Shown: piece after piece, positions 7,437 to 63,889 of the stretch
Position numbering within the stretch: the stretch's first letter is position 1
Layout: every line of letters starts with the position of its first letter
Assembly: GCA_964534995.1 (NCBI GenBank)
Contig: CAZHSC010000005.1
Span: 17,857-81,856, forward strand
Origin: an uncultured Bifidobacterium sp.
GTDB lineage: Bacteria > Bacteroidota > Bacteroidia > AKYH767-A > OLB10
DNA length: 64,000 nt
Direction: 5' to 3'
Position numbers and translations under genes: made by a program
The notes under the pieces: generated by a model
The model's input: only the letters and a program-made list of their open reading frames with translations
What the model was told of the DNA's origin: nothing
Database searches by the model: none

Positions 7437-7444
7437 ACAACAAC

Positions 7445-8560
7445 ATGAAAGAACAATTCATCGCCTTCGTACGGAAAGAATGGTATCACATCTGGCGTGA
7501 TAAGAAAACCCTGTTCATTCTGTTTGGCATGCCCATCGTGCAGATCATCATTTTCGGATTTGCACTGACCAATGAAATCAAGAATTCACGCATTGCGGTG
7601 GTGGACATGAGCCACGATGCGGCCTCCACGCAACTCCTGCAGCGCATGGAAGCCAGTCAGTACTTCGACATTGAAGAAACCCTAAACAGCGCCAACGAAG
7701 CCGATGCAGCTTTTAAACGCGGGAAAGTGAAACTCGTGGTAGTGATTCCCGAAAACTTCGCCTCCGACCTTCGACACAAAAACAAAGCATCGGTACAGGT
7801 AATCGCTGATGCCAGTGATCCCAATACCGGAACTACACTCACCAATTATGTGCAAGCCATCACCGGCGATTTTCAAAACGATCTCAACGAAGGAAAGAAA
7901 CTTCCCTACACGATCACACCGGAAGTGCGCATGCTGTACAATCCGCAATTGAAAGGTGCCTACAACTTTGTTCCGGGTGTGATGGCCATGGTGCTGATGC
8001 TGGTTTGTACGATGATGACTTCTATTGCCATCGTGAGAGAAAAAGAAACCGGCACTATGGAAGTGCTGCTGGTATCGCCCTTGCCACCGCTGCTTGTGAT
8101 TTTTGCGAAGAGTGTTCCTTACTTCTTTCTCTCCGCGGTAAACATTGCCAGCATTTTGCTGCTCAGCGTATTTTTATTGGGTTTACCCATCGCCGGTAGT
8201 CTTGTATTATTGGTTGGGTTGAGTCTCTTGTTTACCCTTACGAGCCTTAGCCTGGGCATGTTCATCAGCTCCATCACCGCGAGTCAGGATGTTGCTATGC
8301 TCGTCTCTCTGATGGGACTTTTTCTTCCCACGCTCATGCTCAGTGGATTCATGTTCCCGATCGAAAACATGCCGATTCCGCTGCGGATGATGTCGAACAT
8401 TGTCCCGGCCAAATGGTACTTCTTCATTGTAAAAGCGGTGATGATTAAGGGCGTGGGATTAAGTGTCATCTGGAAAGAATCGCTTATCCTCACCGGCATG
8501 ACCGTATTCTTTCTGCTGTTGAGTGTTAAAAAATATAAAATCCGCTTAGCCACGGCCTGA
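7445..8560 (+). CDS. ABC-2 type transporter permease (YbhS/YbhR-like)
   Basis: 371 aa. It has an N-terminal TM helix, a large loop and a C-terminal cluster of TM helices, in operon context. Confidence 0.85.
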   Translation: MKEQFIAFVRKEWYHIWRDKKTLFILFGMPIVQIIIFGFALTNEIKNSRIAVVDMSHDAASTQLLQRMEASQYFDIEETLNSANEADAAFKRGKVKLVVVIPENFASDLRHKNKASVQVIADASDPNTGTTLTNYVQAITGDFQNDLNEGKKLPYTITPEVRMLYNPQLKGAYNFVPGVMAMVLMLVCTMMTSIAIVREKETGTMEVLLVSPLPPLLVIFAKSVPYFFLSAVNIASILLLSVFLLGLPIAGSLVLLVGLSLLFTLTSLSLGMFISSITASQDVAMLVSLMGLFLPTLMLSGFMFPIENMPIPLRMMSNIVPAKWYFFIVKAVMIKGVGLSVIWKESLILTGMTVFFLLLSVKKYKIRLATA

Positions 8561-19700: not shown

Positions 19701-19939
19701 AAGATGATGGCATTGGCCGTGCAAAAGCGACTGAACTGCGAAGCAAGAAAAACACCCGGCATTCGCATGGCATGCAACTGACCACCGACCGCATACGCTT
19801 ACTGAACGAATTATACCGGCAGGAAAACAGGATCATTGTTAACGATCTGATAGCAGATGACGGAACAGCCGCCGGTACCCGGGTGAAATTACAAATACAG
19901 TTAAAAAAAGAGAAGTATGATCAAAGCGCTGCTAATTGA
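16745..19939 (+). CDS. Hybrid sensor: two-component-regulator propeller repeats + Y_Y_Y domain + TM + LytS-type histidine kinase
   Basis: 1064 aa with a signal peptide and about 750 aa of periplasmic beta-propeller-like repeats. A TM helix (WWFRIILGLILTGILTGIY) follows, then the His_kinase motif (MNPHFIFNSLNSI) and a HATPase N-box region (ENSIWHG). Confidence 0.85.
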   Translation: MIFHCQKRFFLTGAFLLLSTLSVFSQIYNYYHLTINDGLPSNKVSAITQDPDGFMYFATKDGLVKYDGERMKVITHSPSDTSSIPRNSIKGLLRGSKGEIWCTHDKYGLSALHPGTGRFRRFEFKKITANRQFAGYINNLHEGPDGKIYACTFGDGQSVFIIDPATGAMRQFFLNDYDPGHLLNKNALQVINLHFYNDTLWLFGTTQGLVLFNPVKKSVRKLLQVVPDSLENWANFFDGFLPAADGSLYMGTWGSGLYRYHPSTQKLESFKKVSNWVDLSACSPQLFVNDSTILVTGWDAFLFNIHTGEITCEKQDLLNKYAISGKANSAYRSADGTIWLSTLSGVNYFHPAKNDFKTIYFAGETERLKIDPKREQFWIWYDPATHLYVINYYLHKETKRRFILSVYDDHFRHLYDLPHPLTNENTILSVTGDLKGKVFFSGTLGDKSAISMLDLRSVHPAPVIIAKADIDALWINKLSVFGDTLIVTDLLHSRLAGYHTSDHKLLFNKTLTWQQKKRYHYKDAAIVEDRRRNCLWALDTQGPFAISLSDATAGKVLAGRLDELTDNKPSCYAITLDDKDQLWISHSGGITSLHPDSNIVLTHFNEGQLPSVNSLQLFYDSSGFIWSDCSKGLLRLDVNTGLVQLFNSDKGLQPQCYPGTSSMPANGKMIIPFAGGLLWYDTRKQEELPVPRPPLIIAISSRNDAEVPSTTVFKDTLLMRPYDKNNITIAYSSMNYRRSAFMRYACKLDGIDPDFNPTTAASISYTGLPPGKYLFHVKSSTDGKHWSEERQLTIIITPPWYQTWWFRIILGLILTGILTGIYRMRIRQVKKDERLRSEFHRQITEMEMTALRSQMNPHFIFNSLNSINRYVMQNDRLTASEYIAKFGKLMRNVLDNSKYKSISLQQELETLELYLELEKLRFEDKFEYRVHIDEEVDISSIQIPPMLLQPFAENSIWHGLMHKQEKGLLLIKVSMLPDGILEITIEDDGIGRAKATELRSKKNTRHSHGMQLTTDRIRLLNELYRQENRIIVNDLIADDGTAAGTRVKLQIQLKKEKYDQSAAN

Positions 19940-20663
19940 CGATGAGGTGGGGGCTACGGAGCTACTAAAAGAACAACTCCATGCGCACTGTCCCGAAGTG
20001 GAAGTTTACGGTACCTGCAATGACTCCACCCGTGCCGCGGACATGCTGACGCGCATACAACCCGACCTTGTTTTTCTCGACATTGAAATGCCCAATCTCA
20101 ATGGATTTGAACTGTTGCAATCACTCACTGAAATTAATTTCCGTGTCATATTCGTTACTGCTTATAACCAGTTTGCCTTGCAGGCATTCAGGTATGCCGC
20201 TCTGGATTATCTTTTGAAACCCATTGTCAAAGCGGATTTGATACAGGCCGTTGACAGATACAAACAATTCAATGCACCTGTTAATCGCCAGCAAATGGAA
20301 TACCTTGGCGAGTGGTTACAAAACCAAAAGAACACCCGTCAACGTATCGGCTTAACCGTACGGGACGGAGTCCGCTTTGTTGAAATCAACTCCATTATAC
20401 GTTGTCAGGCCGAAGGCAATTATACCCGTATATTTTTTTCCGGATCCGGGGCCATGCTGGTGAGCCGCACCTTAGGTGATTTTGAAGATCAGTTAACCGT
20501 ACATGGTTTTATCCGCATCAGCCATTCACACCTTGTTCAACTGGCCGCCATTGAAAGATACAGTCGTGAAGACGGAGGCTATGTGGTAATGAAAGACGGG
20601 GTACATATCACCGTATCAAAAAATAAAAGGGAGTCCTTCCTGGCGATGATCCGGAAAATCTGA
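19917..20663 (+). CDS. LytR/AlgR-family response regulator (REC + LytTR)
   Basis: 248 aa. The REC domain has the phospho-acceptor context LVFLDIEMP, and the C-terminus is a LytTR DNA-binding domain. It overlaps the kinase gene by 23 nt. Confidence 0.9.
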   Translation: MIKALLIDDEVGATELLKEQLHAHCPEVEVYGTCNDSTRAADMLTRIQPDLVFLDIEMPNLNGFELLQSLTEINFRVIFVTAYNQFALQAFRYAALDYLLKPIVKADLIQAVDRYKQFNAPVNRQQMEYLGEWLQNQKNTRQRIGLTVRDGVRFVEINSIIRCQAEGNYTRIFFSGSGAMLVSRTLGDFEDQLTVHGFIRISHSHLVQLAAIERYSREDGGYVVMKDGVHITVSKNKRESFLAMIRKI

Positions 20664-27858: not shown

Positions 27859-30800
27859 ATGAGAAATTATTACATAACCATTCTTGCAATCGTGTCCCTT
27901 TTATCACAACCTGAACTTACGCACGCTAACACCTGTTATTCGGCTTATACGCCATCTCCCACCGCTTCGCAACAAAATACCTGCAGTGGAAATACTGTAA
28001 CATTATATGCAAACGGTAATCTTAGAGATAATAGTTACTGGGCATGGTATAAAGATGGATGTGCATCAACCAGTGTTGGAACAGGCTGGAGTATTAATGT
28101 CGCTCCCACCACCACAACCACATATTATGTAAGGGGAGAAGGTGGATGCGCTCCCGGCCCAGGCCCCTGTGGGCAAATCACCATCAATGTGACTCCAGGT
28201 ATCAATGCGCCTGTTTCCAATGATGTATATCAGTGTCAACCAGATTCCGTAGTGCTGAGTGCCACGCCGACGGGCATTAACCAAACCGTAGACTGGTTTA
28301 ATGTGCCTTCAGGGGGGAGTCCTTTAACAGGAGGTTATGGGACAACAAATTTTACCACTCCCTATCTAACTACCTTTACGACTTTTTATACCCGAGCACG
28401 GGATACACTTACCGGATGTTATTCTGCAAACAGAACTGCTGTAACTGTTTATATTGGATCTGGGGTAAATAATACATGGATATCGAAAGCAAGTTTCCCT
28501 GGAACCGGCAGGTATGGTGGTGTATCCTTTGAAATTAATGGTAAAGCTTATACCGGAACAGGAATAAATTCAAATAACAGTAATACCGATGAATTCTGGG
28601 AGTATGATTTACATACAGACACATGGGCTCAAAAAGCCAATTTCGGAGGTGGCCCGCGTCATCATGGAGTGGGTTTTTCGATCGGAAACAAAGGATATCT
28701 AGGAACCGGTGAAAACGGGCCTACGTTAAGTGATTTTTGGGAATATAATCCCACTACAAATATTTGGATTCAAAAAGCCAATGTTCCTGGAAATAGCCGG
28801 GTCAGTGGTGTTGGATTCGCCAGCACGTCTAAAGGATATATAGGCCTGGGTAATAACGGGAATTACGGAGGAGTTCAGCAATGGTATAATGATTTTTGGG
28901 AGTATAATCCTCAAAGTGATTCCTGGATGAAAATGAATAATTTCCCCGGTACCACATTGGGAAGTCCGGTTTGTGGTGTCATCAATGATAAGGCCTATAT
29001 ATGTACAGGATATAACGGTAGTGCATACACTAACGGATTATGGGAATATAATATTACACTGAACTCCTGGACCGAGAAATCACCTTTGCCTTCGAATGCA
29101 CGTGGCGCTGCATTTGGTTTTTCTTTAGGTTCTAAGTTTTATCTGGGAGGAGGAACGCCTGATGGAGGGGTTACCTCCTATACAGATTTTTGGGAATATA
29201 ATCCATCTGTTTCATCGTGGACACAAAAACCGGATGTGGGTGGAACACCCAGATGTTATACCAATTACTTTTCAGGGAACGGCAAGGGTTATGTTCTTTC
29301 CGGTATTTCTTCAGGTGGGGTTAGCTATAATGAGTTATGGGAATATTCCCCGGTGCAGATGATTCAAACGCTGGATCCTTTAGTAAACAATTACTGTCCG
29401 GGAGCAGCTTTGCAAGTACCTTATAAAATTTCAGGAAATTTTGGGACCTGTTCATCCAATACCTTTACTGTTCAGCTAAGTGACGCTTCAGGTTATTTTA
29501 ACGCACCTGTTAACATTGGGTCAATAACGGCAAACACAGACAGTATCATCCCCTGTATTATTCCCACCGGAATTGCATCCGGCACCGCTTACAGGATAAG
29601 GGTGGTCAGCAGTTCTCCTGCTGTTAACGGTGCCGACAACGGAACTGACATCAATATCGGTACCAGTGTAAACTCCTGGAATCAAAAAGCAACTTTTCCG
29701 TCAACGGGCAGGATTGCACCTTCCGGTTTCGGTATCGGTAATTATGGTTACACGGGATTGGGATATGACGGCAGTAGTTTTAAAAACGACTGGTGGCAGT
29801 ACGACCCTGCAACAAATACCTGGACGCAGAAATCCGATTTCGGAGGCGCTCCCCGTGGTTACGCAGCTTCATTTGTGATCAACGGAAAGGGATATGTTGG
29901 AACCGGTTTACTGTCCTTTTCCGGAACCGATGCGGTGGACTTCTGGGAGTATGATCCGATCAGTAACCAATGGAACCAGCGAGCGAATTTTCCCGGCATA
30001 GCACGTGATGATGCGACAGGATTTACGATAGGAGCCAAAGGTTATGTTTTCGGAGGTGTGAATTCGCCGAGTTCCGTACCTTATAATGACCTTTATGAAT
30101 ACGATCCTGCGAGCAATACCTGGATCACCAAAGTTTCGTTGCCGGCAGTTGCAAGAGGCGGTGCCATCGGCTTTGGCATCAATGGGCTGGGATATGTCGG
30201 ACTTGGAGCGGACGGAAGTTCAAATTATCCCAATGACTTTTGGGCATATAATCCACAGACAAATACCTGGGCTGCAAAGGCAGGTTTTCCCGGCCCGTCA
30301 CGGCGTGAGGCTTCTTCCCTGTCAATCGGCCAGTTCGGTTATGTAAGTTGTGGCTTGAACGGAAGTACCCTCTACAAAGATTTATGGCAATACAATCCTG
30401 TATCTAACGCATGGTCACAGAAGGCGGCATTGCCGGCTCAGGCCAGAAAACTAGCTGCCTGCTTCAATGTGCAAAACACGATTTACCTTGGATTAGGAGC
30501 AACCTCCACCTCCTTGCTAAATGATATGTGGGCTTACAATGCGCAACCTGAAATAAAAACCTTGCCACTCGCCAGTATTCAGTATTGCGCCGGAGACACA
30601 TTTACTATTGGTTTTACCGCAGAAGGAACATTTGGGCAGTGCTCCACTAACACATTTATCGCCCAGTTGAGTGATGCCTATGGATATTTCAGTAATCCGG
30701 TACAGATAGGAAGTATAAACGGGACTACCGGGGGTACCATCGCATGTTCCCTTCCGGCTGGCATAAATCCTGGTCTCAAATACAGGGTCAGGGTTATCAG

Positions 30801-33800
30801 CACCGATCTGCCTGTGACCGGCAGTGATAATGGCGCCGATATCGCCATCGGCGTTGCCCCCTCTTTCTGGACTCAAAAGGCCTACGTGGGAACCGTCGGC
30901 CGGCAGGCAGCCGTGGCCTTCAGTATCGGTGGCAAAGGATATGTAGGTACCGGTTATAATAATTCTTCTTCAGCTTATCTGAAAGATTTCTGGGAATACG
31001 ATGAGGCTACAAACACCTGGACGCAAAAAGCGGATTTCGGAGGTACAGCACGTTACTATGCAATAGCCTTAGAACTGGGAGGAAAGGGATATGTTGGCGC
31101 AGGGTATGATGCTGCCAGTACTGTTAAAAACGATTTCTGGCAGTATGATCCGATCACAAATACCTGGCTCCAGAAAGCAAATATTGGTGGAAATCCACGT
31201 TGGGATGCCTTCGGTTTCGCGGTAGATGGCAAAGGTTATGCAGGCTGCGGTACCGACGGCAGCACCTGGTTACAGGATTTCTGGGAATACAACCCCGTTT
31301 CAGATACCTGGACGCAAAAAGGGAATTTCCAGGGCGGTTACCGTATGGGAGCCTGCACATTTATTGCCGGGAGTAACGCGTACGTTGCAACCGGCCAGGC
31401 GCCCTATGGTGTTTATAAAGATGATCTATGGCAGTATAATCCTGCTTCCGATACATGGACCAAGAAAAACAGTTTTGACGGCGGAGGAAGGTACCGTTCT
31501 GTTGGAATCGGAATCGGAAACAACGGATATATATTCAGCCCGGATTACAAACAACTCTGGAAATATGAATCTGCTTCGGATGCATGGATTCAGCTCCCCG
31601 ATTTTCCTGCAAGTACACGTAATCATTCTATTGGCTTTGCTATCGGTACAAAAGGCTATGTCGGCGCCGGTACTTACTCCAATGATATTTATTCATTCAA
31701 CCCCGATTTACTGGTCTCTGTAAGTTCAATAACACCCACGGGAGTATTATGTCCGGGAGCTAATATAAGCGTTTCTTATACTGCGTCCGGTGTTTTCGGA
31801 ACCTGCACCGGAAATACCTTTTACGCCGAGCTCAGTGATGAATACGGGTACTTCTATTATATTCCCCAGTATATTGGTTCCGTCAGTAGTAACGCCAGCG
31901 GTACCATAGCTTGTACCCTGCCTTCCGGTTTAATTGCGGGTGCAAATTACAAGATCCGTATTATCAGCAGTAATCCTCTGGTTTATTCAACTCCAAAACT
32001 TAATATCGCTATTGGCACTCCGGCAAAAAATATTTGGACCGAAAAGTCTGCTTTCAGTGGAAGTGCTGGCCGGAGTTCGGCTGCTTCATTCAGTATCGGC
32101 AACAAAGGGTATATCGGAACCGGGACAGATGGCACGTCTTTTTACCGTGATTTGTGGGAGTATGACCCTGCCACGGATGTGTGGACGCAGAAAGCGATTT
32201 TACCCGGCGTTTTCAGGTCTGGTGCCGTAGGCTTTTCCGTTAATAACAAAGGATACATCGGGACCGGGTATTCCAATACGGGTACGTATCTCAATGACAT
32301 GTGGGAATACGATCCCGTATCCAACACCTGGCTTCAAAAGGCGAACTTTGGAGGTGCGGCACGTATATGGGCAGTAGCCTTTACCATTGGCAGTAAAGCC
32401 TATGTGGGAACAGGAGCGGATGCTTCTTCTGCTCGTCAGGATTTTTGGGAATTTGATCCGCAGGCAAATTCATGGATTCAGAAAGCTGACTTTGCCGGTG
32501 GCATTCGCTATGGGGCTGCTGGTTTTTCAATTGAAGGCCGAGGATATCTTGGTACGGGCCATGATGGCAGTAGTGCAAAGAGTGATTTCTGGGAGTTCAA
32601 TCCCACATTAAATATCTGGACTCAAAAGACCAGCTACGGGTCGAGCTACTATGGCACAACAGGATTTTCCATTGGCCAAAGAGGTTACATTGGACTGGGT
32701 AGAAGCACCAGCAATTATTTTACGAATTATTTCCAGGAATACAACCCTTTAACCAACTCCTGGACTTCTTTTCCCTTTAAAGGAACAGGCCGTTCTTTTG
32801 CTTCCTCTTTTATAATCGGTAATACTGCATTTACCGGCTGCGGTTATGACGGCACTAACGTAAATGATTTTTATGAATTAAAAGGCGCGCCGGTCATTAC
32901 CACTTCGGCTGTCAGTATCGCCCCCTTATGCGCAGGTGGCCAGATAAATGTACCGTACATTGCCTACGGCGATTTTGGCTCCTGCAATTCCAATACCTTC
33001 ACCGCCCAGCTCAGCGATGCCAGCGGAAGTTTTGCTTCACCGGTAAATATCGGAAGCCTGGTTTCAAATACTTCCGGCTCTATCTCTGCAACCATCCCCG
33101 CCAACACGCCTAACGGCACGGGGTACCGCATCCGTGTGGTTAGCAGCAACCCTGTAGTGACGGGAAGTGATAATGGAGGTAATCTGTATGTCGGAATGAT
33201 GGCAAGTAATGTCTGGACTCAAAAATCCAACTTCGGTGGAATTTCACGTCAGGGCAGCGTATCATTTAATATAGGTAATAAAGGATATGTTGGAACCGGA
33301 ACAGATGCCTGGAACAACAACTATTACAATGATTTTTGGGAATTTGACCCCTCAACAAATACATGGACACAGAAGGCAAATTTTAGTGGTAATGCACGCT
33401 ATTCTGCGGTAGGATTTGCCATTGGTACAAAAGGTTACATTGGAACAGGACAGGATGCAACAATGGAATACAATGATTTCTGGGAATATGATCAAGCAGC
33501 TAATGTCTGGATTCAGAAATCAAATTTTGGAGGTATTCCAAGAGGAGCTGCCGTTGGTTTTGCAATTGGGACAAAAGGATATATTGGAACAGGGGGTTCT
33601 TATTTACAGGATTTCTGGGAATGGGATCAGGTTACTGATACCTGGGTTCAAAAGGCGAATTTCGGAGGAGGAGTTAGAAATAACGCCGTTGGTTTCTCTA
33701 TAGATACAAAAGGATATATTGGCACAGGTTATACAGGTGGCGGTTTTGCACAGGATTTCTGGGAATATGACCCGTACTATAATAACTGGATACAAAAAAG

Positions 33801-36800
33801 CAATTTTGGAGGAACTTCAAGAGCTTATGCTAATGGTTTTTGTATTGGAAACAAAGGCTACATGGGAATGGGATCAAATCCAGGTATATTAACAGATTTT
33901 TATGAGTGGAATCCAAAAACAAATGTTTGGACTTTGCTTGCCAGCTTTTCGGGTTACAATGCTGATATTGGGTTTGCAATTGGTCAAAAAGGTTATGTAG
34001 GAATTGGAATCACAAATTCAGGTAGTGATTTCTGGGAATACACTCCGGATTTTACTATTTCTACCGGACCGCTTAACACGCAACCGCTGTGCGCAGGAGC
34101 TTCAATAACTGTACCCTTCTCAGCCAATGGAACCTTTGTCTGCTCCAACACCTTCACCGCCCAACTCAGCGATGCCAGCGGTAGTTTTGCTGCGCCGGTT
34201 AATATCGGCTCCTTAGTTTCAAATACTTCCGGCACCATCTCCGCTACCATACCCTCCAACACGCCTAACGGTACGGGGTACCGCATCCGGGTGGTCAGCA
34301 GTAACCCCGTTGTGAATGGAAGTGATAATGGAAGTAATATATCGATAGGAACTGTTTCAACCAATAGCTGGTCGCAAAAATCAAATTTTGGCGGTAGCGC
34401 CCGTACCGGTGCATTTAGTTTCAGCATCGGCACAAAAGGATATATGGGAACCGGAAATGAAATTTCTGTTGGTGATAAAAAGGATTTTTGGGAGTACGAT
34501 CAGGTTACTGATACCTGGACACAGAAGGCGGATTTCGGGGGCATTGCACGTCGCAACGCCCGTGGTTTTAGCATAGGTGCAAAAGGATATGCCGGTACCG
34601 GAGGAGCGGATACACAGTCCGGCTCCATTTTATTGTATGATTTCTGGGAATATGACCCTGCATTAAATGTCTGGACTCAAAAGGCAAATTACGGCGGTGG
34701 AGCTGTTGCCGATGCGGTTGCTTTCAGTATAGCCGGACTGGGGTATATGGGTACCGGTTATGATGGCATCGGCGGTGGTTACAGGAATGACTTTTGGGAG
34801 TATAATCCTTTGACAAATACCTGGACCTCTAAAGCCAATTTCGGGGGAACAGCCAGGTATACTGCAGAAGGACTCAGTATTGGAAATAAGGGATATATTG
34901 GTCTGGGTTTTGACAGCAATAACCGGAAGGATTTCTGGGAGTATGATCCAACCACCAATACATGGTTGCAAAAGGCAGACTTTGGCGGATCGCCGAGGTA
35001 CCGCACCGGTTCTTTCACCATCGGCAATGAAGGTTACATAGGCGGCGGATTTGACAATGTATCCGTTTTATTCTCTGATTTCTGGAAATACAATCCTGCA
35101 TCTAATCAATGGACGCAGGTCGCCTCTTTTTCCGGTTCGACACGTCAAGCGGTAATTTGCTTCAGTTTAGGAAACAAAGGCTATATTGGAACAGGTGGTA
35201 ATGCCAATTATACACTTCGCTTTAATGATCTTTGGGAATACACACCGGCTTTTTCAATTTCTACCGGTCCGCTTAGCCTATCGCCTCTGTGTGCAGGAGC
35301 TTCAATAGCTGTACCGTTCACGTCTAATGGTACCTTTATCTGCTCCAACACCTTCACCGCCCAACTCAGCGATGCCAGCGGTAGTTTTGCATCACCGGTA
35401 AATATCGGCAGCCTGGTTTCAAATACTTCCGGCACTATCTCCGCTACCATTCCCTCCAACACACCTAACGGTACGGGATACCGCATCCGTGTGGTAAGCA
35501 CTAACCCTGTAGTGACGGGAAGTGATAATGGAAGTAATCTCAACATCGGAGGGGGTAACCCGGGTAATGGAAACGTATGGACCGGCATGGCTAACTACCC
35601 TTCATCCCAGCGTCAGAATGCTTTTTCCTTCACTATTAATGGAAAAGGTTATGTAGGCACCGGTTATTGTTGCGGGAGTCCGCTTAATGATTTGTGGGAG
35701 TACGACGCTTTAGCTGACGCATGGGTTCAGAAAGCTAATTTCCCCGGCAGTGCCCGTACTGCTGCTGTGGGATTCAGTATAAATGGAAAAGGGTATGCCG
35801 GTACCGGTGGGTATGGAAGTTATAACAATGATTTTTACGAATACGATCCTGTAAATAATACCTGGGTACAGAAGGCCAGTTTCCCCGGCGGAGCGCGGGG
35901 TGGAGCTGTTGGTTTCAGCCTGAATAATAAAGGATATATAGGAACCGGAGAAAATGCTTCCAGTACTATCTTTTACAGTGATCTGTGGGAATACGATCCC
36001 GTAATGAATACCTGGATTCAGAAAGCCTCGTTCGGAGTGCACCCACGCGCATTCGCCTTTAGTTTTACCATAGGAAATAGAGCATACGTCGGTGGTGGGG
36101 AAGCATCAGGAAATTCCTGGGATGATTTCTGGGAGTATGATCCTTTAGCGGATTCATGGATACAGAAGGCGGCTTTCGGTGGCGGCGTAAGATATGGGGT
36201 CACTGGATTTTCACTCGGTTCTTTCGGATATGCCTGTTGCGGATATAATTCCAATTCACATAATGATTGCTGGATGTATAACCCCGCTTCCAACCAATGG
36301 ATACAACGCCCTTCCCTTCCCGGTTCCGTCCGCACTTATGCAACAGGCTTTACCATTGAATATAATGCTTATATCGGTGCAGGGGCAAATGGTGCCTGGC
36401 CCGGCGATTACTTCCGGTATACACCTGACTTGCTGGTAAGCTCTCCGCTTACAAACAACAGCTTATGCCAGAACAGTATGTTCGATGTAAGCTATACTTC
36501 CCCGGGAGTTGAATTCCTGCCCTGTAACACTTTTACGGCACAACTCAGCGATGCCAATGGTAGTTTTGCATCACCTGTGAACATTGGATCTCTTGTTTCT
36601 CCGGATTCATCGGGCATTATTCCAGTAATAGTTCCTAACGGAACACCGCCCGGTAATTCCTATAGAATTCGTGTCATCAGCAACCATCCGGCTATCACGG
36701 GAACCGACAACGGAAGCAATATCAGCATCGGAGCCGATACTGCCTTAGTTTATTACCGGGATTTTGATAACGACGGTTTCGGAGATCCAAATAATAACAA

Positions 36801-37275
36801 ATCTGCCTGTACATCGCCATCAGGTTACGTTACGAATAACACCGATTGCAACGATAACAGTGCATTTATCCACCCTGGCACAATTGATATATGCGGTAAC
36901 AATATCGATGAAGATTGCAGCGGCACTGATTCAATTTGTTCCTCAAATATTGTACTTCTCGTTCGTTTATTTATTGAAGGATATTATATTGGTAATTCGC
37001 TGATGTCACCTGTACTGTTTAACAATGGGCTGAGTATAAATACAAATGCTTGTGATAGCGTGATTATAGAATTGCGAGAATCCCTGAGCCCATTCGGTAC
37101 GTTTATTTCGACAGGAACAATACTTCAAACCAATGGTTATGCAAACATTTTGCTGCCTGCCACTATGATTGGAAGCACTTACTATATAGTAGTGAAACAA
37201 AGAAACTCCATCGAAACCTGGAGTAAATATCCTGTCACCCTCACGGGTGGAACCAATATTTTTACTTTTAACTGA
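27859..37275 (+). CDS. Giant (3138-aa) secreted protein: N-terminal Ig-like domains, 7 x (six-bladed Kelch propeller + ~100-aa Ig-like module), MopE-like metal-binding motif, C-terminal beta-sandwich-like module; no T9SS CTD
   Basis: One uninterrupted ORF with a signal peptide (…LTHANTC). I counted 42 blade motifs of the form (N/D)DFWEYDPxTNTWTQKAxFGG..R...GFxIGxKGYxGTG. Seven TFTAQLSDASGSFASPVNIG...YRIRVVS modules occur with a period of about 1.19 kb. The YYRDFDNDGFGDP...CNDNSAFIHPG...CGNNIDEDCSG motif is present near the C-terminus. Confidence 0.9.
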   Translation: MRNYYITILAIVSLLSQPELTHANTCYSAYTPSPTASQQNTCSGNTVTLYANGNLRDNSYWAWYKDGCASTSVGTGWSINVAPTTTTTYYVRGEGGCAPGPGPCGQITINVTPGINAPVSNDVYQCQPDSVVLSATPTGINQTVDWFNVPSGGSPLTGGYGTTNFTTPYLTTFTTFYTRARDTLTGCYSANRTAVTVYIGSGVNNTWISKASFPGTGRYGGVSFEINGKAYTGTGINSNNSNTDEFWEYDLHTDTWAQKANFGGGPRHHGVGFSIGNKGYLGTGENGPTLSDFWEYNPTTNIWIQKANVPGNSRVSGVGFASTSKGYIGLGNNGNYGGVQQWYNDFWEYNPQSDSWMKMNNFPGTTLGSPVCGVINDKAYICTGYNGSAYTNGLWEYNITLNSWTEKSPLPSNARGAAFGFSLGSKFYLGGGTPDGGVTSYTDFWEYNPSVSSWTQKPDVGGTPRCYTNYFSGNGKGYVLSGISSGGVSYNELWEYSPVQMIQTLDPLVNNYCPGAALQVPYKISGNFGTCSSNTFTVQLSDASGYFNAPVNIGSITANTDSIIPCIIPTGIASGTAYRIRVVSSSPAVNGADNGTDINIGTSVNSWNQKATFPSTGRIAPSGFGIGNYGYTGLGYDGSSFKNDWWQYDPATNTWTQKSDFGGAPRGYAASFVINGKGYVGTGLLSFSGTDAVDFWEYDPISNQWNQRANFPGIARDDATGFTIGAKGYVFGGVNSPSSVPYNDLYEYDPASNTWITKVSLPAVARGGAIGFGINGLGYVGLGADGSSNYPNDFWAYNPQTNTWAAKAGFPGPSRREASSLSIGQFGYVSCGLNGSTLYKDLWQYNPVSNAWSQKAALPAQARKLAACFNVQNTIYLGLGATSTSLLNDMWAYNAQPEIKTLPLASIQYCAGDTFTIGFTAEGTFGQCSTNTFIAQLSDAYGYFSNPVQIGSINGTTGGTIACSLPAGINPGLKYRVRVISTDLPVTGSDNGADIAIGVAPSFWTQKAYVGTVGRQAAVAFSIGGKGYVGTGYNNSSSAYLKDFWEYDEATNTWTQKADFGGTARYYAIALELGGKGYVGAGYDAASTVKNDFWQYDPITNTWLQKANIGGNPRWDAFGFAVDGKGYAGCGTDGSTWLQDFWEYNPVSDTWTQKGNFQGGYRMGACTFIAGSNAYVATGQAPYGVYKDDLWQYNPASDTWTKKNSFDGGGRYRSVGIGIGNNGYIFSPDYKQLWKYESASDAWIQLPDFPASTRNHSIGFAIGTKGYVGAGTYSNDIYSFNPDLLVSVSSITPTGVLCPGANISVSYTASGVFGTCTGNTFYAELSDEYGYFYYIPQYIGSVSSNASGTIACTLPSGLIAGANYKIRIISSNPLVYSTPKLNIAIGTPAKNIWTEKSAFSGSAGRSSAASFSIGNKGYIGTGTDGTSFYRDLWEYDPATDVWTQKAILPGVFRSGAVGFSVNNKGYIGTGYSNTGTYLNDMWEYDPVSNTWLQKANFGGAARIWAVAFTIGSKAYVGTGADASSARQDFWEFDPQANSWIQKADFAGGIRYGAAGFSIEGRGYLGTGHDGSSAKSDFWEFNPTLNIWTQKTSYGSSYYGTTGFSIGQRGYIGLGRSTSNYFTNYFQEYNPLTNSWTSFPFKGTGRSFASSFIIGNTAFTGCGYDGTNVNDFYELKGAPVITTSAVSIAPLCAGGQINVPYIAYGDFGSCNSNTFTAQLSDASGSFASPVNIGSLVSNTSGSISATIPANTPNGTGYRIRVVSSNPVVTGSDNGGNLYVGMMASNVWTQKSNFGGISRQGSVSFNIGNKGYVGTGTDAWNNNYYNDFWEFDPSTNTWTQKANFSGNARYSAVGFAIGTKGYIGTGQDATMEYNDFWEYDQAANVWIQKSNFGGIPRGAAVGFAIGTKGYIGTGGSYLQDFWEWDQVTDTWVQKANFGGGVRNNAVGFSIDTKGYIGTGYTGGGFAQDFWEYDPYYNNWIQKSNFGGTSRAYANGFCIGNKGYMGMGSNPGILTDFYEWNPKTNVWTLLASFSGYNADIGFAIGQKGYVGIGITNSGSDFWEYTPDFTISTGPLNTQPLCAGASITVPFSANGTFVCSNTFTAQLSDASGSFAAPVNIGSLVSNTSGTISATIPSNTPNGTGYRIRVVSSNPVVNGSDNGSNISIGTVSTNSWSQKSNFGGSARTGAFSFSIGTKGYMGTGNEISVGDKKDFWEYDQVTDTWTQKADFGGIARRNARGFSIGAKGYAGTGGADTQSGSILLYDFWEYDPALNVWTQKANYGGGAVADAVAFSIAGLGYMGTGYDGIGGGYRNDFWEYNPLTNTWTSKANFGGTARYTAEGLSIGNKGYIGLGFDSNNRKDFWEYDPTTNTWLQKADFGGSPRYRTGSFTIGNEGYIGGGFDNVSVLFSDFWKYNPASNQWTQVASFSGSTRQAVICFSLGNKGYIGTGGNANYTLRFNDLWEYTPAFSISTGPLSLSPLCAGASIAVPFTSNGTFICSNTFTAQLSDASGSFASPVNIGSLVSNTSGTISATIPSNTPNGTGYRIRVVSTNPVVTGSDNGSNLNIGGGNPGNGNVWTGMANYPSSQRQNAFSFTINGKGYVGTGYCCGSPLNDLWEYDALADAWVQKANFPGSARTAAVGFSINGKGYAGTGGYGSYNNDFYEYDPVNNTWVQKASFPGGARGGAVGFSLNNKGYIGTGENASSTIFYSDLWEYDPVMNTWIQKASFGVHPRAFAFSFTIGNRAYVGGGEASGNSWDDFWEYDPLADSWIQKAAFGGGVRYGVTGFSLGSFGYACCGYNSNSHNDCWMYNPASNQWIQRPSLPGSVRTYATGFTIEYNAYIGAGANGAWPGDYFRYTPDLLVSSPLTNNSLCQNSMFDVSYTSPGVEFLPCNTFTAQLSDANGSFASPVNIGSLVSPDSSGIIPVIVPNGTPPGNSYRIRVISNHPAITGTDNGSNISIGADTALVYYRDFDNDGFGDPNNNKSACTSPSGYVTNNTDCNDNSAFIHPGTIDICGNNIDEDCSGTDSICSSNIVLLVRLFIEGYYIGNSLMSPVLFNNGLSINTNACDSVIIELRESLSPFGTFISTGTILQTNGYANILLPATMIGSTYYIVVKQRNSIETWSKYPVTLTGGTNIFTFN
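32990..35540 (+). repeat. High-identity intragenic DNA repeats inside the giant gene (copies at ~32990-33185, 34030-34340 and 35230-35540)
   Basis: Aligned by eye, the copies at 34030-34340 and 35230-35540 are offset by exactly 1200 nt with roughly nine in ten bases identical. The copy at 32990-33185 shares the 190-nt TFTAQLSDASGSF core. Confidence 0.8.
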
Positions 37276-58839: not shown

Positions 58840-59035
58840 TACAGATAGTCCTTTCAAAGAACCGCCAGGAAAAAGACGGGTTTATTTATGGGATAGGATG
58901 ATTCAGCGCAAGGAGTATACTATTTTATACCTTCCATTTACTTCCGGCAGGCAATTTTAATTTATCACACCTAAAAATATAATGGTATTGGTGTGTTTGT
59001 CAGAACTCCTGCAGGTTGAGGAAAAAGTGCTGTTG

Positions 59036-60205
59036 TTACAGCTTCATCATTTTTGCGTTGAAAATGCCGTTGCCGGAATGTATGCTTACCATATAATTTC
59101 CGGGAGCAAAGTGACTGCAATTGATTTCATGTCGCCCTGTTTCCTTCCCCTTCAGACGGCGTTGTTCATATACAATCCTGCCTTGTGCATCCTGTATGCT
59201 TAGTACAGCCTCCGCCGTTAGTGTGGGCGGTAAATAAACAGTAAGTGTTGTTGTTACCGGGTTGGGATAAAGCATCAGGTCAACCACCTTGCCGCCTTCT
59301 GCCAACGCCAGGGGGCTTCCCGGGTTGCAACTTTCAAGGTCGGCATATCCTGTTGATGAGGACGGCATAGGGATGGCTACGCCCGCGCTTACCGTCCCCG
59401 TATTCAGAACAAGCGGCAACAGCGCATTGGGTGTTTGGGGGTGTGCGGGACCAAATGCGAGATAGAGGGTGCTATTCAGCAGCATCATACCATAACAAGC
59501 AGTGGTATTCAGATTGGCGGCATATTGCATCAGCAACTGTCCGCCCGGCGTCACCACATACAGCGAATCAGATATAACAGCCCCGGAACCTGTTGGTCCT
59601 GTAAAAAACCAGACATTACCGGCCTGGTCCACCGCCAGGTCCCCCACACTCGACCTGCGGCCGGGGCCCCATGACCAGACGGGTGAAAGGCTTGTACCGT
59701 TAAAGCGAACCACACCCCTGGAAGTGGAAGTGCTGTCATACAGGATATAATAGAGATAATTGCCGTTACCGCCGCAATTGAATATCTTGTCCGGTGCCGC
59801 ATTTGCCGATGTATTCACCCATGCGGTACCGTTATAATACCCGGGAATACGCGAGTTGGTGGTGGTATAAAAAGTAGGCGTGAAGGAACCGCCGTTCAGG
59901 TTATTGCAATAGGCCAGGTTGCCTTCTGTGGCTGTGAATATTCCGGAGGCCACCAGGCTGACCGTAGCCCCGCTCAGATTCAGCTCATCAATGCTGCCAT
60001 TGCCCAGGCTGTTGATAGCCCAGAAGTTCCCGGGACTGCAGGGAATTCCCGGCAGCGTTGCCCTGTCAGATGTTTCATTTCCTGCGGGCTGGATTTTATT
60101 TGTTTTTACACGACCGGAAGGTGATATGGAATTTTTCAAGGGAGGCTGTGCCTGAGCAGAAACAATAAAGAAAAACAGCAGGGCAAGGGAGAGGAACTTG
60201 TTCAT
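59036..60205 (-). CDS. Secreted hypothetical protein with T9SS C-terminal sorting domain
   Basis: 389 aa with a signal peptide (…SAQAQ). The C-terminal LMLYPNPVTTTLTVYL...FNAKMMKL looks like a T9SS CTD. Confidence 0.6.
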   Translation of the reverse strand: MNKFLSLALLFFFIVSAQAQPPLKNSISPSGRVKTNKIQPAGNETSDRATLPGIPCSPGNFWAINSLGNGSIDELNLSGATVSLVASGIFTATEGNLAYCNNLNGGSFTPTFYTTTNSRIPGYYNGTAWVNTSANAAPDKIFNCGGNGNYLYYILYDSTSTSRGVVRFNGTSLSPVWSWGPGRRSSVGDLAVDQAGNVWFFTGPTGSGAVISDSLYVVTPGGQLLMQYAANLNTTACYGMMLLNSTLYLAFGPAHPQTPNALLPLVLNTGTVSAGVAIPMPSSSTGYADLESCNPGSPLALAEGGKVVDLMLYPNPVTTTLTVYLPPTLTAEAVLSIQDAQGRIVYEQRRLKGKETGRHEINCSHFAPGNYMVSIHSGNGIFNAKMMKL

Positions 60206-60390
60206 AGTAATTATGTTGCAGGATAAATATAGGCATATTTTAAAAAAACAGCATTGCGCTTCTTTTCAGTCAGTCAAATTGTTCTTGTACAACTCAACGG
60301 AAGGCGCTATGGATAGCCTGAATTTCCTGTCATACACAATATACCAGACTTGTATAATACTTCAGCAGAAGTCAGGGTAAATATCTTTTT

Positions 60391-61400
60391 TAGCCGGATA
60401 CTTTGTTCATTAAATGCAATCGCTTTCTAAAAGCATAAATATTTTTAATCGAATACTTTTGATATGGGGCGGGGCCGGAGGCTCCAGGTTAAAAGTTCTA
60501 TCACCAAATTATTTCCGGCAATTTTAATTTAATGTTCAGCCATATCCTGTATTAAACGTTTATAAATACTTATCATACGACTAACTATTCCCAAATGACT
60601 ATTTTTGATTTGGGGCGGGGCCGGAGGCCCCCGGTTTTAGTAATATATTGTACCACGTATGAACGGAATTTTTTTCAGCAGCCGGATTCGTTTTCCAAAT
60701 TAAATTAACGATTATTATACGACCGGATATTTTCTATGATGAAAAATATCAACCAGGGCGGGCATGACTTAGCCCTATTTTGTCAATTCAATATTGATTT
60801 AATTATCCTTTCCGGAAAAGCTCGATGTAAACGTATATAAAGGTTTATTGTACGACTTCCCAATTTTTATAATGTAGATTTGTGCAGGGGCGGGGATGGC
60901 ATCCCCCCTTATCGCTGTTGAAATTTCTATTTCATTTATTATCTTTAAAGACGACTTGATGTAAACGTATATAAACGTTTATTATACGACTTCCCAATTT
61001 TTATAATGTAGATTTGTGCAGGGGCGGGGATGGCATCCCCCCTTATCGCTGTTGAAATTTCTATTTCATTTATTATCTTTAAAGACGACTTGATGTAAAC
61101 GTATATAAACGTTTATTATACGACTTCCCAATTTTTATAATGTAGATTTGTGCAGGGGCGGGGATGGAGGCCCCCGGCTAAAAGTTCTATCACTAAATTA
61201 TTTCCGGCAATTTTAATTTAATGTTCAGCCATATCCTGTATTAAACGTTTATAAATACTTATCGTACGACTAATTATTCCCAAATGACTATTTTTGAATT
61301 GGGGTGGGGCCGGAGGCCCCCGGTTTCAGTAAAAAAAATATACGCCATAAACGGAATATTTTTTAGCAGCCGGATTCGTTTATCACCCAATTTAAACGTT
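60391..61400 (+). repeat. Tandem array of seven 131-146-bp units (palindrome + TACGAC-N18-TAnnTTTG box + GGGGCGGGG hairpin)
   Basis: The G-run hairpins start at 60466, 60612, 60756, 60887, 61021, 61155 and 61301. The three central units are near-identical with a 134-bp period. Blocks 60466-60700 and 61155-61385 are ~230-bp direct repeats. No ORF of 60 aa or more lies in the array. Confidence 0.85.
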
Positions 61401-61714
61401 TGTATATCCCGCTATAGCTGACAACCACGTTGAAGTTCAAATTGACCTCATCACTTTCCTACAGGACTTACTCAATGTTTCCTTTTAAGCTTATTCTCGT
61501 ACCGTGTATAATAACAAAAACGCTTATGTAATCTTTAACATTATTGAAGTTGTCAGCATCTGTTTCTAAATCCTAAATCGCCTTCACGCTGTTTCATGCA
61601 AGAATTCATAAAATCGGTACATGAAAACTTATCGACTTTTTCAGCATTGTTTTACTCCTGTTTTTCCATTTTTAGATGGATTTGTGTCTACCTGTTACAG
61701 GACGGGACATTTCC

Positions 61715-61749
61715 AATATAAAAAGGGCCATCATCACTGACAGCCCTTT
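61715..61749 (-). terminator. Rho-independent terminator after the PKD/T9SS gene
   Basis: On the minus strand: AAAGGGC-N14-GCCCTTT followed by TTATATT, 23 nt after the stop at 61772. Confidence 0.6.
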
Positions 61750-61771
61750 CTTTATGCCGGTATCCGGTATA

Positions 61772-63889
61772 TCATCTGGCAATCAAAAAAGGCAGGGAGT
61801 AACTGTTGCCGTTTTCCTGCACCTGCAAAATATACAATCCTTCCGCTTCCTTGCTCAGATCCAGTACCCATTGCTTCGGAGGCGCGATGCGCTCATACAC
61901 CTGTCTTCCATCACTGCCGGTGACCGTGACGCGCTGCGCACTTTCTTTCATCTTCAGCTGAAACAAGCCTGTGCCCGGATTCGGATACAGGCTGATGCCC
62001 GCCTTTTCAATTTCACCGATTCCCGAGCAGGGATCCACAGTGATGACGGAGGTGTCGCGGCCCACACAGCCTGCTGAATCGGTGTACGCATAAATAATAT
62101 TTTTCGCGCCCAGCCCTGCGGCGGCGGGATCAAACTGGTTGCCGGTAACACCCGGGCCGCTGTAAGTACCTCCGGCGGGTGTGCCGGGAGTAAGTGTGAT
62201 GGGTGAAGAGAATACGCATACCAGCGTTTGCGCTTCCACATAGGTTACAGCAGGCGCGTTCATCACAATGTTAATGGTGTCGGTCGAGGTACAAGCATTC
62301 ACGCTCGTTACGGTAACGAAGTAGCTGCCTCCGGAATTTACAAGAATACTTTGTGTGGTGGCTCCCGTATTCCACAAATACGAGCTGCCCGGGTTTCCCG
62401 CGTTTATGGACACAAAGCCCTGGCAGATACTAAGGTCGTTACCGAGAAATACAACAGGTATCGGGTAAATAGTAGCAACAATAAAATCACCGGCCGAGCA
62501 ACCGAATCCATTAGTTACCGTCACGGAATACACTCCTGTTTGTGTAATGGATATCGTCTGTGTCGTTTCGGAGGTGCTCCAGAGGTAACTGCTGCCGGGG
62601 TTCTGCGCATCGAGGAGGATGGCATTCCCGCCGCAGATGGAAACAGAGTCATTACCCAAAGAAACAACGGGGAAAGGATTTATGGTGACATTTATTGTGT
62701 CTGCACCGGAACAACCGGCTGCATCGGTAACCACTACATCGTAAGTACCGGAAGCCGTAACAGTAAGCGTAGACGTGGTGGCGGAAGTACTCCAGAGATA
62801 AGTGGAATAGGAGCCCGGTAGACTGAGCACTGTACTTCCACAGGCGGTAATATCACTCCCCAGGCTCAGCGGCAGCACGTTGGGACATACGGAGATGTTT
62901 TTACATTCGGTATTCACCCCGCCGCAGGTATCTGTCGCCGTGAGGCAAACGGTATACAAGCCAAAGGTAGCATAGCTATGGGAGGGGTTCTGCTGGGTGG
63001 ATGTGGTACCATCGCCAAAATCCCAGAGCCATGTGGTGGTGTTCTGCGAGTTATCGGTAAAGTCCACCGTAGGATAGTTGATAGTATAGCTGTAGTCCGC
63101 CAGCGCCGGGGCGGGGCAGATAATGACGGTGGTGCAAACGGTATCACTCACGCAGGCGCCGGTGATATAGGAACATACCGTATAGTTGCCCGGTGCGGCG
63201 AAAGTGTGGGTCGGGTTGTAGGCAGTATCTAACGGCGACCCGTCACCGTAATCCCATACCGAGGTAGCCGCCGAGCTGGCGCCGTTGCTGAAAGCATAGG
63301 TGGTACCTCCCTGCCAGTTGGCATATACGTTAATGGTATAGGTAGTATCGTAATACAGGAACACCCTGCTGATGCTTCCTCCGGATTCTGTCCACAGGTC
63401 CTGCGGAGCGGTGGTGGACAGGGAGAATTGCATGCCAAGCCGCTGTATCGTTACCGGAAAGCCATTGATATCGCTGGTGCTCGGCGAAGTGGAGTAGGAG
63501 TTCACATCGCTGCCGCCGCTGTTTTTACGTACCCCCAGTACGCCGATGATATCGCCCGGCGCCACTTCAATGTTCAAGGCCTGTATACCCGTATCCGGAT
63601 TGTTCTGCGTTAGATACAGCACTGTAAAGTTATTCGTTACGGTACTGTACAGCGGGGGTACGTTATCCAGTTTTACGATGGCTATGCTTTGATTTCCGGG
63701 CGCCGCATCAAAGGGTACCTGGGCACCAGTAATGGTAAAACAGGTGGGGGAGGTAAACCAGTAACCGCGCACACTGCCCGAAAAAGTAGTTACCTGAGCC
63801 GGTAAAGGCATCTGAATCAGGTTTTGCGCCCATGAAGGGGCAAGGCAACACATCACCAATATTACGTGTAGTAGAATTTTTTTCATCAT
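61772..63889 (-). CDS. Secreted PKD-domain protein with three ~70-aa Cys-containing repeats and T9SS C-terminal sorting domain
   Basis: 705 aa with a signal peptide. It has two PKD signatures (WDYGDGSP..., WDFGDGTTS...) and three repeats containing GSSYLW(S/N)TxxTTQ(T/S)I. The CTD-like end is ISLYPNPGTGLFQLKM...PFLIAR. Confidence 0.75.
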   Translation of the reverse strand: MMKKILLHVILVMCCLAPSWAQNLIQMPLPAQVTTFSGSVRGYWFTSPTCFTITGAQVPFDAAPGNQSIAIVKLDNVPPLYSTVTNNFTVLYLTQNNPDTGIQALNIEVAPGDIIGVLGVRKNSGGSDVNSYSTSPSTSDINGFPVTIQRLGMQFSLSTTAPQDLWTESGGSISRVFLYYDTTYTINVYANWQGGTTYAFSNGASSAATSVWDYGDGSPLDTAYNPTHTFAAPGNYTVCSYITGACVSDTVCTTVIICPAPALADYSYTINYPTVDFTDNSQNTTTWLWDFGDGTTSTQQNPSHSYATFGLYTVCLTATDTCGGVNTECKNISVCPNVLPLSLGSDITACGSTVLSLPGSYSTYLWSTSATTSTLTVTASGTYDVVVTDAAGCSGADTINVTINPFPVVSLGNDSVSICGGNAILLDAQNPGSSYLWSTSETTQTISITQTGVYSVTVTNGFGCSAGDFIVATIYPIPVVFLGNDLSICQGFVSINAGNPGSSYLWNTGATTQSILVNSGGSYFVTVTSVNACTSTDTINIVMNAPAVTYVEAQTLVCVFSSPITLTPGTPAGGTYSGPGVTGNQFDPAAAGLGAKNIIYAYTDSAGCVGRDTSVITVDPCSGIGEIEKAGISLYPNPGTGLFQLKMKESAQRVTVTGSDGRQVYERIAPPKQWVLDLSKEAEGLYILQVQENGNSYSLPFLIAR

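Follow-up and report, generated by a model that had tools for sequence, protein, structure and literature searches.

What kind of element fills a gene-free gap with seven copies of a promoter-like box and a G-rich hairpin? The question is raised by a 64,000-nt stretch of contig CAZHSC010000005.1 (the window, meaning here the whole stretch that was analysed), in which a gap of 1.57 kb (60206–61771) lies between two minus-strand genes for proteins sorted by the type IX secretion system (T9SS) and carries a tandem array of such units on the plus strand. The array is a real, selected and lineage-restricted non-coding element, and the object under selection is a sharply bounded module of 83 bp. As to its function, we tentatively favour a reading drawn from the sequence, according to which each module would be an activator-dependent sigma-A promoter for a non-coding transcript of which only the first 21 nt matter, the array being a dosage-amplified and co-regulated set of such promoters; we put this forward as a reading that may well be right rather than as one that we expect to be.

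The array had been described in a first-pass annotation of the window, the coordinates and motifs of which were all found as described. The G-rich elements start at 60466, 60612, 60756, 60887, 61021, 61155 and 61301, which reproduces the distances of 146, 144, 131, 134, 134 and 146 bp from G-run to G-run, and the gap, said to hold no credible open reading frame (ORF), has none longer than 60 aa. The octamer TAnnTTTG, reported 4 nt before the G-run in six of the seven units, is indeed located there, and the concentration of the motifs in the array speaks against chance. All six occurrences of TTTGNNNNGGGGYGGGG in the window are inside the array, where shuffled sequences lead one to expect 0.28 in the window and none of 100 shuffles reaches six; the combination TACGAC-N18-TAnnTTT occurs five times, again exclusively in the array (1.0 expected); and nine of the 11 occurrences of TAAACGTTTA, with at most one mismatch, are in the array, the expectation for the window being 2.45. 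The window has 20 TAnnTTTG octamers on the plus strand, six of which fall within the 1 kb of the array, and such an octamer precedes 4 of 36 long ORFs at a distance of at most 120 nt (about 1 expected). The features of the region are the following, positions within a module being counted from the first G of the G-run (+1).

59036–60205, minus strand: gene for a T9SS-sorted protein of 389 aa.
60404–61407, plus strand: whole array as delimited by repeat, motif and covariance-model searches, composed of seven tandem modules in direct orientation (60404–61321; five intact, two decayed) and the truncated start of an eighth.
60404–60486, plus strand: module 1 (-62 to +21), 66.6 bits with the covariance model; degenerate upstream repeats without TACGAC, TACTTTTG box at 60454–60461, hairpin at 60471–60485 with one G·U pair.
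60550–60632, plus strand: module 2, intact, 90.5 bits; TAAACGTTTA at 60553, TACGAC at 60576, TATTTTTG at 60600–60607, GGGGCGGGG at 60612, hairpin GGGGCC-GGA-GGCCCC at 60617–60631 followed by CGGTTTT, the only canonical terminator-like site (hairpin plus T-run) among the seven units.
60694–60776, plus strand: module 3, decayed, 59.9 bits; TACGAC retained, -7 box lost (AAAAATAT), G-run and hairpin degenerate (GGGCGGGC...GCCC).
60825–60907, plus strand: module 4, intact, A type, 89.9 bits; TAGATTTG at 60875–60882, hairpin GGGGAT-GGC-ATCCCC at 60892–60906.
60959–61041, plus strand: module 5, intact, A type, 93.9 bits; a 134-bp tandem copy of module 4 with TAGATTTG at 61009–61016 and the hairpin at 61026–61040.
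61093–61175, plus strand: module 6, a chimera, 90.2 bits; A-type promoter and left arm GGGGAT joined to the B-type right arm GGCCCC.
61239–61321, plus strand: module 7, intact, B type, 86.0 bits; TATTTTTG at 61289–61296, GGGGTGGGG at 61301, hairpin at 61306–61320.
61392–61407, plus strand: remnant of an eighth module (first upstream repeats, TTAAACGTTTGTATAT) found by repeat and motif search, the right edge of the array.
61715–61750: GGGC...GCCC hairpin between an A-run and a T-run, resembling a bidirectional terminator, which would end transcription of the following gene as well as any plus-strand transcript of the array.
61772–63889, minus strand: gene for a T9SS-sorted protein with PKD domains.

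The seven units do not count as seven independent ones. A two-unit block (60443–60643) recurs at 61132–61332 with an identity of 89% in the repeat search and of about 95% in an alignment that begins at the G-run, and the three central units form a 134-bp tandem duplication (2.6 copies, 98–100% identity); since the block is duplicated at both ends and the 134-bp unit is repeated, the array, with its decayed unit, comprises four unit types. For the 134-bp units, which are nearly identical, the copy number is only that of the assembly, and a short-read contig from an independent assembly (L007) stops about 10 bp before the first unit, as is expected at a repeat. The hairpins were described as 6-bp stems in five units; the stem is perfect in four (60612, 60887, 61021, 61301), whereas the stem of unit 61155, GGGGAT/GGCCCC, consists of four G-C pairs, one U·G pair and one A·G mismatch; its interpretation as a chimera with an A-type left and a B-type right arm was confirmed, the junction being located inside the hairpin. 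The segment between modules 1 and 2 shares 15 nt (GGCAATTTTAATTTA, 60517–60531) with the gap downstream of the 389-aa gene (58950–58964), an identity that is probably due to chance (E of about 0.003 before correction for five queries).

The same module forms arrays in a few related uncultured bacteria. A strict pattern scan with one genome per species detected only JAEUTF01, an uncultured Bacteroidia metagenome-assembled genome (MAG-322), which has two separate arrays (at the fetched loci L001 and L003); a first scan of metagenomes with the strict pattern gave no match, and a relaxed scan of metagenome contigs yielded a three-unit array in WBZP01 (L018), the other matches being chance ones in coding DNA. 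The arrays used for comparison come from four assemblies (JAEUTF01, WBZP01, WBZT01, JAXLTL01), and, CAYSLQ01 included, at least five public assemblies other than that of the window contain the module as independently assembled sequence, which establishes that this type of array is not an assembly artefact.

Alignment of 18 units from three genomes (window, JAEUTF01, WBZP01), which required no gaps, reveals where selection acts. Identity between genomes is 0.72 at -62 to -31, 0.42 in the variable 18-bp spacer at -30 to -13, 0.80 in the TAnnTTTR box at -12 to -5, 0.32 at -4 to -1, and 0.78 at +1 to +21, i.e. in the GGGGY run and the hairpin, and it falls to the random level of 0.28 and 0.27 in the flanks (-102 to -63 and +22 to +61, respectively). 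Because of this drop at both edges, the selected object is the 83-bp module and not the period of 131–146 bp. The DNA between modules is 10–225 bp long and random between genomes, and the spacing of the modules in other arrays varies from about 95 to 307 bp. The upstream segment (-62 to -31) is composed of three repeats, each with an A-rich stretch and an ACG or ATG core, in a period of 10–11 bp (AAAYG/TACG type; consensus TAAACGnATA, CAAAYGTTTAT and nnTACGAC). The palindrome noted in the first-pass annotation is present in units of the window, but in the other genomes most units lack it, and three direct repeats describe the segment better.

The hairpin at +6 to +20, with a stem of 6 bp and a loop of 3 nt, is a further conserved feature. 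Its positions are paired in 94% of cases, compared to 84% in column shuffles and 40–71% for slid partners, and two pairs covary, with AU↔CG changes in 7–8 sequences and CG↔UA changes in 4. RNAalifold recovers the same hairpin and predicts no structure upstream of it, and the subtypes CC-GRA-GG and AU-RGC-AU coexist both in the window and in MAG-322. Since these positions are base-paired and covary, something single-stranded, most simply nascent RNA, appears to be under selection. Nothing similar was found for the units as a whole, which fold no better than shuffled sequences on either strand (z from -1.4 to +1.6) and have no consistent 3' hairpin.

The primary sigma factor of the Bacteroidota, sigma-A, recognizes promoters with a -33 TTTG and a -7 TAnnTTTG element. 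The module shares the octamer, in which T, A, T, T and T are invariant across the 18 units while both n positions vary, and this octamer (TAnnTTTG or TAnnTTTA) is placed such that transcription would start in the conserved G-run. In the map of transcription start sites of Flavobacterium psychrophilum, the sigma-A box is located at -12 to -5 (PMC9723704), from which the first G of GGGGY is the predicted +1. The module differs in lacking the -33 TTTG or TTG, normally situated about 19 bp upstream of the box; the position reads CGA and is occupied by TACGAC, preceded by two further phased repeats. This arrangement would fit a promoter dependent on an activator that occupies the repeats.

From these properties we infer the following course of events. 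A DNA-binding protein, the hypothetical activator, would occupy the three phased repeats at -62 to -31, which have a period typical of response-regulator-type activators and stand where the -33 TTTG is missing; sigma-A would read the TAnnTTTR box at -12 to -5; transcription would start on the first G of GGGGY; and the nascent RNA would fold at once into the GC hairpin at +6 to +20. As the promoter and the first 21 nt appear to be the only parts under selection, the remainder of the transcript would be free to drift, and what counts would be the 5' hairpin end, whether a short RNA in its own right or a tag at the 5' terminus; with the activator on, it would be made in large numbers, and tandem amplification would raise the dose. 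The first-pass annotation had proposed that every unit contains its own regulated promoter, from which transcription runs into a hairpin at the 5' end; as a prediction from sequence, this gains support from the conservation footprint, the invariant box and the covariation. A family of short RNAs, which it had also suggested, is doubtful in the usual sense, as nothing past +21 is conserved and a canonical terminator is present in one of seven units, and could apply in the modified form just given.

By analogy, the module would be most like the tandem loci of sibling small RNAs (sRNAs) with regulator-dependent promoters, of which LhrC1-4 of Listeria (LisRK), OmrA/OmrB of Escherichia coli (OmpR), PrrF1/F2 of Pseudomonas and the RsmX copies are examples. 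Both have a series of non-coding units lined up head to tail within a single intergenic gap, a copy number that varies by duplication and, as judged from the motifs, a promoter and upstream regulator site of its own for each copy (-62 to -5 in every intact unit of three genomes). The likeness fails in two respects (body and synteny) and is doubtful in a third (terminators), and these count against the favoured promoter reading. Sibling sRNAs keep a conserved seed or body, whereas in the modules only the promoter and +1 to +21 are conserved, identity at +22 to +61 being the random 0.27 given above; sibling sRNAs have their own terminators, whereas those of the modules are inconsistent and the bodies are 10–225 nt of unconstrained sequence; and sibling sRNAs are syntenic, whereas arrays are absent from the same gap in relatives. 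To the same side belong the CGA at -33, owing to which promoter activity depends on a hypothetical activator, the variability of the hairpin loop (GGA, GGC, AGC, GAA), which speaks against a sequence-specific protein site in it, and the fact that no more than about half of the units have T-rich sequence immediately behind the 5' hairpin. The counts of G·U and C·A pairs do not tell which strand folds, the covariation rests on few independent events because only a handful of genomes carry the module, and arrays are found at four non-homologous loci in three genomes, with different loci in close relatives.

The turnover just mentioned is most evident beside the genes cdd and pdhA, where the array of L018 is located. 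The PdhA protein encoded there belongs to a cluster of 90% identity found on many contigs, and the gap between the two genes occurs in the following forms.

cdd-pdhA gap of 168–226 bp, no module: two lineages and MAG-322 itself (L025–L034, L043, L044, L051–L055).
cdd-pdhA gap with one module: L050.
cdd-pdhA gap with a decayed promoter and an intact hairpin: L049.
cdd-pdhA gap of 551 bp, two modules: L045 and L046.
cdd-pdhA gap of 934 bp, three modules: L018 and L035.

Six short-read contigs stop inside the first module at this locus. L049 (320–700) keeps an intact GGGGGCGGGGCCGAAGGCCCC hairpin beside the cdd stop codon, the promoter of its only module having decayed. The joins between the variants fall at the hairpin, the same place as that of the A/B chimera of the window, and we propose that unequal recombination within modules may be the process by which arrays gain and lose units and by which chimeras arise. 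A comparison of L018 with L045 gives 93% identity for the modules and 75% without gaps for the ordinary flank, but only 55% with 47 gap positions for the inter-module body, so that the putative transcript body is less constrained, and diverges faster, than the neighbouring intergenic DNA. The flanking genes of the window array are adjacent in the closest available relative (L024), 148 bp apart and without a module; close orthologues of the ATPase gene next to one of the MAG-322 arrays were not found.

Because of this turnover between close relatives, two alternatives are kept beside the promoter reading. The first is a mobile or selfish repeat, in which a recombinase or transposase encoded elsewhere recognizes the module (the repeats for binding, the hairpin as cleavage or structural site) or in which the module is spread by recombination and amplified in tandem, its likeness to a promoter being incidental or serving the element itself. 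We consider this unlikely but by no means negligible. It would account for arrays at several non-homologous loci without a neighbouring gene in common, for presence and absence among relatives with PdhA at least 90% identical, for the adjacency of the flanking genes in L024, and for the sharp boundaries of the module. A recombinase site, however, gives no reason why the invariant positions should be exactly those of the sigma-A box. Terminal inverted repeats are lacking, target-site duplications are not definable as the flanking intergenic DNA is too diverged, and the scanned ORFs of the window and next to the other arrays contain no transposase or integrase domain, nor a cas or reverse transcriptase (RT) domain, the RT scan having covered window ORFs of at least 150 aa and the array-flanking ORFs of L001, L003 and L018. 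A covariance model of the module detected no further copy in the window and none outside arrays in about 340 kb (the window and some 40 fetched loci, most of which are repeated samples of a single locus), the decayed copies, a few in number, being inside arrays. Phage, plasmid and viral collections contained no related sequence, and the matches of a relaxed G-hairpin pattern in viral contigs were unrelated terminators. Repetitive extragenic palindromic (REP) sequences, bacterial interspersed mosaic elements (BIMEs) and promoter-bearing miniature inverted-repeat transposable elements (MITEs), such as the Correia elements of Neisseria, are intergenic GC-hairpin repeats that cluster, vary between strains and can carry promoters. 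The modules resemble them in their intergenic clustering, GC hairpin and presence or absence between strains, but have neither inverted-repeat ends nor the tetranucleotide and palindrome pairs of REP sequences, and all copies are direct; an identification as MITE- or REP-like element was rejected for the lack of terminal inverted repeats and of solitary copies in the 340 kb.

The second alternative, which we regard as rather unlikely, is a cis-acting promoter array, the firing of which drives a downstream operon, runs antisense into a convergent gene or alters supercoiling at a divergent promoter, with the hairpin serving only to stabilize or pause the transcript. An unconstrained body suits a role for the act of transcription itself, and the window and the cdd-pdhA locus have the same layout, the array diverging from the start of one gene (the 389-aa gene and pdhA, respectively) and converging on the 3' end of the other (the PKD gene and cdd, respectively). 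In L018, no terminator intervenes in the 115 nt that separate the last predicted start site from the stop codon of cdd, and the array of L003 points toward a glycosyltransferase/Wzy operon 700 bp away. In the window, by contrast, the terminator-like hairpin at 61715–61750 separates the array from the convergent gene, and the orientation to neighbours is inconsistent, since the array of L001 is co-directional with, and downstream of, a P-type ATPase gene. Further objections are that the neighbouring genes are functionally unrelated and that relatives keep the same genes without any array. Between the array of L003 and the glycosyltransferase/Wzy operon, two copies of another repeat of about 120 nt were observed (approximately 7000–7450, minus strand), which have no match in Rfam.

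A third possibility, to which we give only a small chance, is an RNA system independent of Cas proteins in which the promoter resides in the repeat and the RNAs have a fixed 21-nt 5' handle (GGGGY and the GC hairpin) and a body that diversifies quickly; the function of the handle would be to recruit a protein, and the RNAs would act as a protein sponge or as handle plus variable guide. Such a system would explain the restriction of conservation to handle and promoter, bodies evolving faster than neutral neighbours, and the turnover of arrays. Some CRISPR arrays, those of type II-C, carry promoters in their repeats. CRISPR arrays in general have repeats of 23–50 bp, regular spacers of 26–72 bp and cas genes, whereas the modules measure 83 bp with irregular spacers of 10–225 bp, and the latter gave no phage or plasmid match. 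With type II-C arrays and with tandem interspaced guide RNA (TIGR) arrays, the subject of PMC12045711, the modules share the repeat-spacer layout, a small hairpin and a (here predicted) promoter in the repeat, strain variation and fast-changing inter-repeat DNA; they differ in that no cas or tas genes are near the arrays and in that orthologous spacers are still recognisably homologous. The non-coding RNA arrays of UG27 RTs in Bacteroidota prophages are similar in their units of about 135–167 nt and in gain and loss between close relatives, but these units form long structured hairpins or pseudoknots with little sequence conservation and stand beside an RT and two accessory genes (bioRxiv 10.64898/2026.09.22.753630), whereas the modules are conserved in primary sequence, have a fold z of about 0 and no RT domain in the scanned ORFs.

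A site acting at the DNA level, i.e. an array that titrates a transcription factor or a centromere-like, replication or recombination site, would require protein binding and a DNA cruciform but no RNA, and seems to us improbable. Three phased direct repeats per module, many modules per array and palindromic versions of the repeats in some units would suit it, and the wobble counts do not separate an RNA from a DNA hairpin. This reading leaves unexplained, however, why a sigma-A box is conserved at constant distances of 18 bp from the repeats and 4 bp from the G-run, titration in particular accounting neither for the -7 box and start site nor for the base-paired hairpin; a cruciform with a 6-bp stem and a 3-nt loop is unlikely to extrude; and the arrays, of which there are several per genome, stand in a chromosomal, housekeeping context. 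An explanation by faulty assembly or by accidental likeness, finally, is almost certainly wrong, since the motif statistics and the five independent assemblies oppose it, even though the number of the 98–100% identical central units could be mis-assembled and one short-read contig stops at its border.

Several more specific identities were considered and rejected. The first-pass annotation had recognized no named RNA family, and Rfam searches, which covered the array region, the complete window and the arrays of relatives, gave no match at gathering score, the only matches, both at chance level, being U4 (E = 2.3) and one (E = 0.041) in L003 outside the arrays; a search for tRNA and tmRNA was negative, too. 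A gene array for ribosomally synthesized and post-translationally modified peptides or other small peptides is opposed by the lack of an ORF common to the unit types, the ATG of one B2 copy being ATA in its duplicate. Type III toxin-antitoxin RNAs of the ToxI kind have repeats of 34–45 nt, one promoter and a toxin gene, while the units here measure 131–307 bp, have a box each and no downstream ORF. A globally structured RNA as in retrons or UG27 systems does not agree with a fold z of about 0 on both strands and with RNAalifold, which sees only the small hairpin, and a sponge for CsrA-type proteins binding GGA was rejected because GGA is not enriched in the window or L018, its excess in L001 and L003 being contributed by the loops of the hairpins and by AAACGGAT, a conserved repeat of the promoter part. 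Matches of inter-module DNA to antisense targets within the window were at chance level.

Other readings of the upstream segment fared no better. ATACGACT corresponds to -15 to -8 of the T7 promoter consensus, which is 23 bp long and includes TATAGGG at -4 to +3, and TCATACGACTAACTATT, located at 60572–60588 and at equivalent positions of other units, agrees with the core of the T7 promoter at 14 of 17 bases; as only the 8-mer ATACGACT is conserved across units and the next bases are not, a promoter for a T7-like single-subunit RNA polymerase was rejected and the match is considered a coincidence. In the case of a promoter for an extracytoplasmic function sigma factor (AAAC ... CGAC), the spacing would be 20 nt and the RNA would need a terminator that half of the units lack, and a LacI/PurR-type operator (AAACGTTT) is contradicted by the missing central CG in most units of other genomes. 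Some 9-mers fit the published consensus of LytTR sites in inconsistent orientation, and this reading is kept only as a lead. A histidine kinase with Reg_prop and Y_Y_Y domains followed by a LytTR-type response regulator is encoded at 16745–20663 of the window; the regulator is a possible direct-repeat-binding activator, located 40 kb from the array with nothing linking the two.

A few observations concern the wider neighbourhood. Homologues of the 389-aa gene in L020 (11353–14168) and L021 (5023–5223) stand beside tandem ORFs of 56–66 aa with a lanthipeptide leader domain (PF28317), each with its own TAccTTTG-type promoter and unrelated in sequence to the modules of the window. The window also contains a single ORF of 3138 aa (27859–37275) with Kelch/beta-propeller repeats and Ig-like domains, near which two subtilase ORFs of 1295 and 1485 aa are located, one of them with a T9SS sorting domain, followed further downstream by several smaller T9SS-sorted proteins.

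No description of the module was found in the searchable literature. Since it is rare, being present in a handful of uncultured Bacteroidia, probably from wastewater or freshwater, its general importance may be limited. Bacteroidota are not known to have Hfq or ProQ or, in most lineages, CsrA, and the module bears on how these bacteria organise RNA-based regulation. Either it would embody a new mode of producing regulatory RNA, with the 5' end as the sole part that counts, or it would be a new type of repeat that carries a promoter and remodels the DNA between genes, and the interest in it would be higher if the 5' hairpin proved to be a protein handle. As predicted from its motifs, it may also serve as a natural example of a Bacteroidota promoter lacking the -33 element, the three phased repeats of which offer a bait for finding the activator.

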